Source: Escherichia coli O157:H7
Lineage (GTDB): Bacteria; Pseudomonadota; Gammaproteobacteria; Enterobacterales; Enterobacteriaceae
Reading direction: 5' to 3' (one strand)
Assembly (NCBI RefSeq): GCF_013167455.1
Contig: NZ_CP038328.1
Length of the DNA stretch: 64,000 bases
Shown here: one piece after another, positions 30,525 to 31,090 of the stretch
How the letters are laid out: each line of letters starts with the position of its first letter
How positions within the stretch are numbered: position 1 is the first letter of the stretch
Program-made: the position numbers and the translations under genes
Notes under the pieces: model-generated
The model's database searches: none
What the model was told of the DNA's origin: nothing
The model's input: only the letters and a program-made list of their open reading frames with translations

Positions 30525-30548
30525 ACCCGCCCACAAGCGGGTTTTTTT
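30525..30548 (+). terminator. Intrinsic terminator about 65 nt after Q
   Basis: CCCGCCCACAAGCGGG hairpin followed by TTTTTTT. Confidence 0.6.
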
Positions 30549-30630
30549 GTGCCACTTATCTCGGATAGACATGGTGAATGCGCTGGTGGAGGAAGTAAGG
30601 GTAATTTTTAACCAGGTGATTCTTGAATGC

Positions 30631-30659
30631 TTGCAACATTGATTTCGTAACGTTATTAT
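30631..30659 (+). promoter_or_regulatory. Near-consensus sigma70 promoter upstream of the tRNA cluster (possibly the late promoter PR')
   Basis: TTGCAA, 17-bp spacer, TATTAT, 9 nt before the tRNA 5' end. Confidence 0.5.
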
Positions 30660-30668
30660 CCTGCGCCC

Positions 30669-30744
30669 GGCCCTTTAGCTCAGTGGTGAGAGCGAGCGAC
30701 TCATAATCGCCAGGCCGCTGGTTCAAATCCAGCAAGGGCCACCA
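30669..30744 (+). tRNA. ileZ: tRNA with anticodon CAU (Ile2/Met type; ileZ-like phage tRNA)
   Basis: Cloverleaf: acceptor GGCCCTT/AAGGGCC, D-arm GCTC...GAGC, anticodon loop CUCAUAA, T-loop TTCAAAT, CCA end. Confidence 0.8.
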
Positions 30745-30752
30745 TCACATAC

Positions 30753-30828
30753 CGCCATTAGCTCATCGGGATAGAACGCCAGCCTTCGAAGCTGGTTTCG
30801 CGGGGTTCGAGTCTCCGATGGCGGTCCA
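30753..30828 (+). tRNA. tRNA-Arg, anticodon UCG as read from the sequence
   Basis: Acceptor CCGCCAT/ATGGCGG, anticodon stem CCAGC/GCTGG with loop CTTCGAA, T-arm CGGGG-TTCGAGT-CTCCG, CCA end. Confidence 0.7.
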
Positions 30829-30841
30829 TTATCGGTATTCT

Positions 30842-30918
30842 GCGTTTTTAGCTCAGCAGGACAGAGCAATTGCCTTCTAAGCAATCGGTCACTGGTTCGA
30901 CTCCAGTACAACGCGCCA
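30842..30918 (+). tRNA. tRNA-Arg, anticodon UCU (decodes rare AGA)
   Basis: D-arm GCTC...GAGC, anticodon stem ATTGC/GCAAT with loop CTTCTAA, T-arm ACTGG-TTCGACT-CCAGT, CCA end. Confidence 0.75.
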
Positions 30919-31090
30919 CACTTATTTTCCCGGCTCGCTTTTGCGGGCCTTTTTTGTATCTGCGCCACGCCCGGCACATACCAACCACAGAGCCTTTCGG
31001 GGGGGGGGAGCTTACGGAGTGGTCAGTGTGACTTTCTCTGTGGGCAGATCGCTCCCGGGCGTTGGCTCACCCACCCAAAGGAACGTCACG

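Follow-up and report, generated by a model that had tools for sequence, protein, structure and literature searches.

The closest described relative of the element considered here is the ileZ–argN–argO tRNA cassette of enterohaemorrhagic Escherichia coli (EHEC) Shiga toxin (Stx) phages, known from phage 933W and from the Sakai prophage Sp5 (as ileZ2–argN2–argO2), which in the classical view supplies rare-codon tRNAs for horizontally acquired genes. In Sp5 the late antiterminator gene Q is followed by PR' (TTTACG-16-TATCAT), a terminator about 258 nucleotides (nt) downstream, a methylase-gene remnant, the sequence TTGCAG-17-TATTAT-CCTGCGCCC, and then ileZ2. Differential RNA sequencing of the Sakai Stx2a phage by Sy et al. 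placed a separate primary start between tR' and stx2AB that drives the tRNAs (PMC7547250), and elsewhere a 'pS tRNA promoter' has been listed apart from pR', qut and tR' (PMC2858043). Here we describe three tRNA genes in a stretch of 64,000 nt from E. coli O157:H7 (contig NZ_CP038328.1), referred to as the window, in whose coordinates positions are given unless another record is named. The three genes have the same anticodons in the same order as the EHEC cassette, lie like it between a late promoter and terminator and the late genes, and are preceded by a -10 element and discriminator identical to those upstream of ileZ2 in Sp5. They differ in standing behind a Q82-type Q rather than Q933 or Q21, in being followed by TerB/TciB genes rather than stx2AB, and in having one derived stem mismatch each in argN and argO. 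The trio is the already known ileZ–argN–argO cassette of O157 lambdoid prophages.

The best explanation of the locus, which we consider highly probable, is that two separate units follow Q on the same strand: a late unit and a self-promoted tRNA module. Behind it stand four observations: the tRNA genes themselves, the boundaries of the module, two promoters that are each conserved, and a bias in the codon use of the prophage. The first unit would be under the control of Q, and without Q its promoter pR' would yield only an IsrJ-like leader of about 74 nt. The second would comprise a sigma-70 promoter with a stable-RNA-like discriminator and a -10 ending 9 nt before ileZ, the three genes, decoding AUA (ileZ), CGA/CGG (argN) and AGA/AGG (argO), and a terminator of its own. 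In the lysogen the promoter of the module would itself give a basal supply of the tRNAs, while on induction Q-modified polymerase from pR' would cross tR', the tRNAs and their terminator and go on into TerB/TciB, nanS-p, and the lysis and morphogenesis genes, so that the tRNA supply would rise.

According to ARAGORN the window has three tRNA genes and no more, each on the + strand: ileZ, a tRNA-Ile2 with the anticodon CAU (CAT in the DNA; 30669-30744), argN, a tRNA-Arg(UCG) (30752-30828), and argO, an argU-like tRNA-Arg(UCU) (30842-30918). The Rfam tRNA model gave these 72.5, 44.4 and 62.4 bits, respectively (gathering score 29; E-values 3e-15 to 2e-7). The anticodons are those that an earlier sequence-only reading of this DNA had assigned. 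PGAP labels the corresponding genes tRNA-Ile, tRNA-Arg and tRNA-Arg in FORC_044, a genome with a near-identical copy of the locus, and depositors of Stx phage genomes name the CAU gene tRNA-Ile or ileZ. By its sequence the CAU tRNA is Ile2 (ileX-type and AUA-reading, with lysidine modification presumed) and not Met, as it is far nearer to K-12 ileX than to metT or metU and has the acceptor pairs C4-G69 and C5-G68 in common with ileX, which we take to be TilS determinants. The UCU tRNA resembles K-12 argU in alignment, and to our knowledge the UCG isoacceptor is absent from E. coli K-12. 'Rare-codon trio' is a fair description of these tRNAs, and that part of the earlier reading stands.

The promoter scan placed the promoter of the module on the + strand at 30631-30659, with the -35 TTGCAA, the 17-nt spacer and the -10 TATTAT that had been noticed before. 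It is followed by a GC-rich discriminator, CCTGCGCCC (30660-30668, +), which we take to be like those of host stable-RNA promoters, and no terminator was found between this promoter and the tRNAs. The module is closed by an intrinsic terminator at 30932-30955 (+ strand; terminator scan and fold), which is the hairpin and T-run already seen after the tRNAs: a hairpin of 7 bp at 30932-49 (six G-C pairs and one G-U) and then T6, folding at -14.0 kcal/mol with z -4.2. This terminator is conserved in the cassette and in Stx2 phages lies directly before stx2A. Promoter, ileZ–argN–argO and terminator together make up a portable module (30602-30966, +) that is 93.7% identical over 366 nt to the Stx2a phage WGPS6, in which the genes are annotated ileZ, argN and argO, and the homology stops at both module ends, 30602 and 30966. 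A search of literature full text under the gene names ileZ, argN and argO returned nothing relevant.

We scanned IMG/VR with a 39-nt stretch of ileZ, which gave 120 loci; analysed together with the Stx2a phage L002 and the window, these formed a set of 121 in which 41 upstream sequences are distinct. In 104 of the 121 loci TATTAT precedes the tRNA 5' end by exactly 9 nt, and in 14 more by 10 nt (the 9-nt distance is found in 36 of the 41 distinct upstream sequences), a TTGnnn hexamer stands 17 nt upstream of TATTAT in 104/121 loci, and the information content across the loci peaks at both hexamers. The nearest upstream gene of the cassette is a DNA methylase in 59 loci, a 237-aa open reading frame (ORF) in 14, a 273-aa Q in 13, a Q of the Q82 type in 12, a Q933-like Q of 157 aa in 8 and a Q21-like Q of 162 aa in 3. 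As the promoter stands behind unrelated Q families and behind genes that are not Q at all, it belongs to the tRNAs and is not Q-specific. The tRNA complement varies between the loci, with Ile-Arg(UCG)-Arg(UCU) in 58, Ile-Arg(UCU) in 33 and Ile-Lys-Thr-Gly in 11. On these alignments the tRNA module appears to be an insulated, independently promoted unit that moves between Q types. We also considered a Q-binding element in the spacer of the tRNA promoter and rejected it, the TGATT pentamer being all that is common with pR' and not being conserved in other cassette variants. In Sp5 (L214) the segment between tR' and the tRNA promoter (1306-1424 of that record) is an apparent 3' remnant of a methylase gene, the last ~40 nt of which match the sequence preceding the tRNAs in the 59 IMG/VR loci, and this suggests that the tRNA module moved together with the end of the methylase gene.

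The other unit is found between Q and the tRNAs. Q (29769-30458, +) belongs to the phage-82 family of late antiterminators (Pfam PF06323, E 7.9e-92), is named 'bacteriophage antitermination protein Q' by PGAP, and shares 76% identity with the Q of phage 82, 73% with that of phage 434 and 67% with Gifsy-1 AntQ. A search of PDB sequences with Q returned a single weak and unrelated match (1xov, E 5e-4), and NCBIfam has no model for Q, nanS-p or DUF3927. The gene ends 211 nt before the first tRNA, and the earlier reading passed over both a second promoter-like site of equal quality (30442-30470) and a hairpin with T7 (30526-30548), the latter within the coordinates that it gave. In described Q cassettes the Q gene is followed by a promoter with an embedded Q-binding element, a -10-like pause element (with the pause at +16 to +25) and a terminator, and at the pR' of phage 82 the pause is at +25 (PMC4914094). 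The segment 30442-30548 of the window has the features of a Q82-type unit, with a Q-adjacent promoter, a pause element at about +9 to +15, a terminator, and conservation within the family. Its putative late promoter pR' (+ strand; promoter scan and conservation) has the -35 TTGCAA at 30442-47, a 17-nt spacer and the -10 TATATT at 30465-70, and overlaps the Q stop codon. It is followed on the same strand by a candidate sigma-dependent pause element, the conserved extended -10-like TGATATTTT (30482-30490), and by a predicted short late leader RNA of about 72-75 nt (30474-30548, +; Rfam, alignment and fold; -24.1 kcal/mol, z -4.0) which is IsrJ-like. The leader ends in the intrinsic terminator tR' (30526-30548, +), with a CCCGC/GCGGG stem, a 6-nt loop and T7, which aligns with the annotated terminator of phage 434. 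It should be noted that the terminator scan lists this hairpin on the - strand only and that the + strand reading comes from the sequence and the fold; the hairpin (30522-30548) is flanked by A4 and T7 and could terminate in both directions.

This arrangement is retained well beyond the window. Phage 434, Salmonella ZC-S1, Klebsiella 2 LV-2017 and Enterobacter CobraSix have the pR' hexamers at an equal offset from the Q stop, Cronobacter phiES15 has them 3 nt closer to it, and in each of these five Q82-family relatives, which represent five genera and have Q proteins 51-73% identical to that of the window, an intrinsic terminator follows pR'. TGnTAnnnT occurs at the same position in 6/7 Q82-family phages and also at the isrJ site in Gifsy-1, and the late-unit segment is kept in all 78 of the 78 viral contigs that have this Q allele and downstream sequence. 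The search for related loci that was anchored on Q returned only relatives with 96-100% identity, and it speaks to the linkage of pR' and tR' with Q and not to the separation of the two promoters, which comes from the ileZ-anchored scan and from diverse GenBank phages. We place pR', the pause site and tR' at 30442-30548 on these comparisons, so that the constitutive short late transcript would end about 120 nt before the tRNAs, and binding of Q and Q-dependent read-through of tR' are predicted for the same segment.

The sequence-only reading had instead suggested that TTGCAA-17-TATTAT at 30631-30659 might be the Q-responsive late promoter, with the tRNAs forming a constitutive short late transcript that ends at the 30932 hairpin. 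This site resembles a promoter, comes after Q on the same strand, has a good terminator about 290 nt later, and has the TTGCAA -35 and the 17-nt spacing in common with the upstream site. We nevertheless give the suggestion almost no credence, since there is a complete Q82-type unit upstream that is conserved with Q across genera, and since a promoter that recurs behind the methylase gene, the 237-aa ORF and four unrelated Q families is unfit to hold a Q-specific binding element. It also has neither TGnTAnnnT nor a good -10-like hexamer in its first 25 transcribed nt (these being the tRNA itself), and its homologue in Sp5 is found past the mapped tR'. The promoter thus travels with the tRNAs and not with Q, and the short late transcript would stop at 30548, before the first of them. 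A different possibility is that expression of the tRNAs depends wholly on induction, through Q-antiterminated read-through from pR', and that TATTAT is silent in the lysogen. Q-modified polymerase must indeed cross the tRNAs, which are downstream of pR' and tR' on the same strand, and the -35 of the module promoter is weak (4 of 6 positions here and 3 of 6 in Sp5), but a separate primary start for the tRNAs is reported in the Sakai Stx2a phage (PMC7547250) and the -10 is strictly conserved and keeps its distance from the tRNA even where the contexts have diverged, which read-through alone would not require, and we regard this possibility as improbable. Because of the dedicated promoter and that separate start site, supply of the tRNAs in the lysogen from the cassette's own promoter is likely; the earlier expectation of such a supply was probably right, though the route would be this promoter rather than the late one.

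Codon use was counted on the ORFs of the window (which departs from FORC_044 beyond 36.9 kb) and is given here per 1000 codons. AGA stands at 6.4-9.6 in prophage ORFs against 1.4 in the host flank, AGG at 4.8-6.7 against 1.0, CGG at 12.1-16.1 against 4.9, ATA at 7.3-8.4 against 5.6, and CGA at 5.5-6.9 against 4.7, and the codons read by the cassette are accordingly 1.3- to 7-fold enriched in prophage genes compared with the host. This bias fits the classical view of rare-codon supply, and the anticodons of the cassette correspond to the excess of AGA, AGG, CGG and ATA in prophage and effector genes. Host tRNAs that have been cleaved can be rescued by the tRNAs of some phages, and colicin D cleaves tRNA-Arg; as two of the three tRNAs are Arg isoacceptors, their main role might be thought to be that of replacements or decoys against toxins that target tRNAs, such as colicin D and anticodon nucleases, and not codon adaptation. 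We find this very improbable: the codons enriched in prophage genes are exactly those for which the cassette has anticodons, the variable complements of other loci (with Lys, Thr and Gly) also fit codon supply, and no nuclease or immunity gene is linked to the cassette in the window. Three NleG-like ORFs at the end of the prophage (59764-61815) are the richest in ATA and AGA, and one of these has 8 ATA and 9 AGA in 209 codons, which would be read by ileZ and argO.

There are a number of points which weigh against the two-unit explanation or against the importance of this copy. With a score of 9 of 12, the promoter at 30631-30659 is not significant by its match to the consensus alone (the 4-kb region has 7 such sites, compared with 3.3 +/- 1.6 in shuffles), and we accept it as real because of its conservation and not because of its consensus score. 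Its activity in this copy and that of pR', and the start sites in this prophage generally, are assigned from homologues, the coordinate of the Sakai tRNA start is absent from the text of PMC7547250, and the pause near +25 is a prediction from the position of the TGATATTTT element. The enrichment of ATA and CGA is modest. Compared with the commonest alleles among the 121 related loci, this copy departs from standard pairing at two places: a C-A mismatch in the D stem of argN, which none of the 12 commonest alleles has, and a U6-C67 mismatch in the acceptor stem of argO, flagged by Rfam, where the commonest allele has G6-C67. Both mismatches appear to be derived, and aminoacylation and function of the two tRNAs are presumed. 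The integrase of the FORC_044 copy is a pseudogene, and the O157 genomes among the matches listed have 5-10 matching places each. What this copy adds is uncertain because of the two mismatches, the defective-looking prophage and these 5-10 places, and its own contribution to the tRNA supply may be small.

It could be argued from the same observations that the cassette here is a decaying relic which adds nothing useful, being present in many copies and in a defective prophage; argN, besides its mismatch, has the lowest Rfam score of the three (44.4 bits), and ARAGORN did not detect argN in 33/121 of the related loci. However, all three tRNAs score well above the Rfam threshold, ileZ is off the commonest allele by one variable-loop base only, and the promoter, discriminator and terminator are intact. 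Single stem mismatches in tRNAs are often tolerated, and the allele is stably inherited, as the 561-nt segment around the tRNAs is 100% identical in many E. coli O157:H7 chromosomes. We therefore consider decay to be unlikely.

Downstream of the module, the stx2AB genes of the Stx2a phage L002 (2867-4236 of that record) are replaced here by 30967-31702, and the flanks common to both are the tRNA module on one side and STnc100 and nanS-p on the other. In the Stx2a phage the order is module, stx2AB, an STnc100-like element and nanS-p, and in the window it is module, a TerB-family (TciA-like) protein (31095-31523, +; PGAP), DUF3927 (TciB-like; 31520-31687, +; PGAP), the prophage small RNA (sRNA) STnc100 (31692-31864; Rfam 101.8 bits, gathering 47) and nanS-p. 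The earlier proposal that TerB-like and nanS-p genes occupy the stx slot holds for TerB and DUF3927, which are at the position of stx2AB in L002, but nanS-p is no replacement as it follows stx in Stx phages too. L002 has a 70%-identical STnc100 element after stx2B (4237-4380). A preprint on the Pas sRNAs describes PasD/STnc100 beside a sialic-acid esterase, as in the window, and takes the frequent tRNA matches within 10 kb of PasA and PasC to be prophage integration sites (bioRxiv 10.64898/2026.05.13.724894); in loci like the window, the tRNAs beside STnc100/PasD and nanS-p are the internal ileZ–argN–argO cassette and not attachment sites. We note two further details of this interval. A run of ten G residues (31001-31010) lies between the tRNA terminator and terB, its length apparently unlike that in FORC_044 (the alignment loses register at 31009), and this tract may be prone to slippage. 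The ATG start of the TerB-family protein (MFGIFGKK..., 31091-31141) meets a stop after 16 codons, while relatives read MFGIFKKKTRRAATEIKKF in one frame; the main TerB ORF is in another frame with the PGAP start at a TTG (31095), an arrangement suggestive of a frameshift within the A/G-rich run that encodes the TerB N-terminus.

The prophage itself is lambdoid and probably defective, and lies at the ynfA/Qin locus of E. coli O157:H7. In FORC_044 the annotation of the near-identical copy passes from the host genes asr to ynfA into a lambdoid prophage with the pseudogenised integrase, exo, dicB, relE, hokD, rusA, Q and the three tRNAs, and after these the TerB-family protein, DUF3927, a SASA-family esterase (nanS-p), genes for lysis and morphogenesis, and nleG7. 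Up to 36.9 kb the identity of the window to FORC_044 is 99.7%, and beyond that point the window has a different late module; its packaging and head genes in the late region (36900-51600) are unlike those of FORC_044, and the prophage is a mosaic. No complete genome in the collection matches the window from 30000 to 54000 at >99.6%. The cassette has matches in 3,156 of the 5,426 complete E. coli genomes, at <=14 places per genome, and the query region has matches in 381 phage records.

As a discovery the cassette has little weight, since it is already annotated in phage and genome records and its separate promoter has already been noted experimentally. What the analysis adds is a corrected map of the interval between Q and lysis, with the late promoter, pause site and terminator of a Q82-type O157 prophage, and a link between the Q82-family late leader and IsrJ, which is small but testable and of use to those working on prophage sRNAs. 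IsrJ is an experimentally detected 74-nt sRNA of Salmonella (PMC2330248), and it is not called a pR' leader in the IsrJ and IsrK literature examined, including that paper. The Gifsy-1 unit is similar to that of the window in length (74 nt) and in lying downstream of a Q82-family Q, and its promoter (TTGCAAAA...TATATT), 5' end (TGYAAATCTGATAT), CAAACAAA tract and terminator all align with the window (30474-30548, against 3047-3121 of the Gifsy-1 record L004). It differs in that an isrK–orf45–anrP insert, which carries Rfam C4 antisense and c4-a1b1 matches, lies between Q and the unit, placing the homologue 0.85 kb further on and intact. The promoter directly after Q in Gifsy-1 was considered as pR' and rejected, because Rfam put isrK there and isrJ on the true homologue. 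Rfam isrJ (RF01393) scores the Gifsy-1 locus at 100.3 bits but the window leader at only 24.5 bits (E 0.16), below the 37-bit gathering threshold, and isrK scores the leader at 22.7 bits, also below gathering. The RNA of the window is best described as IsrJ-like and not as a member of Rfam isrJ, and its expression and function in E. coli are at most predicted. Homology between the late leader of the Q82 family and Salmonella IsrJ is, as far as the alignments indicate, only a mildly new point. We suggest more tentatively, and with slightly more doubt than conviction, that the 30474-30548 leader is the O157 counterpart of IsrJ and that IsrJ-type Hfq-binding sRNAs are the StxS-like constitutive short late transcripts of Q82-family prophages; if so, the lysogen would receive two stable-RNA products from this probably defective prophage, an IsrJ-like regulatory RNA and a set of rare-codon tRNAs, each from its own promoter in one of two adjacent units.

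Compared with other described late units, that of the window is like the phage 82 cassette in its PF06323 Q, in a promoter lying over the Q stop, in a -10-like element for a near-+25 pause and in a terminator ~70 nt from the start, and as record X92588 of phage 82 has no sequence beyond the Q stop, the comparison of pR' was made via phage 434 and other relatives. StxS and the lambda 6S RNA are comparable to the predicted leader in being constitutively initiated and terminated leaders of the late operon in lysogens (PMC7547250), but they differ in having no sequence similarity to the leader of the window. The leader of Sp5 is 258 nt long and is processed to 74 nt, whereas the window is predicted to produce a primary transcript of about 74 nt.

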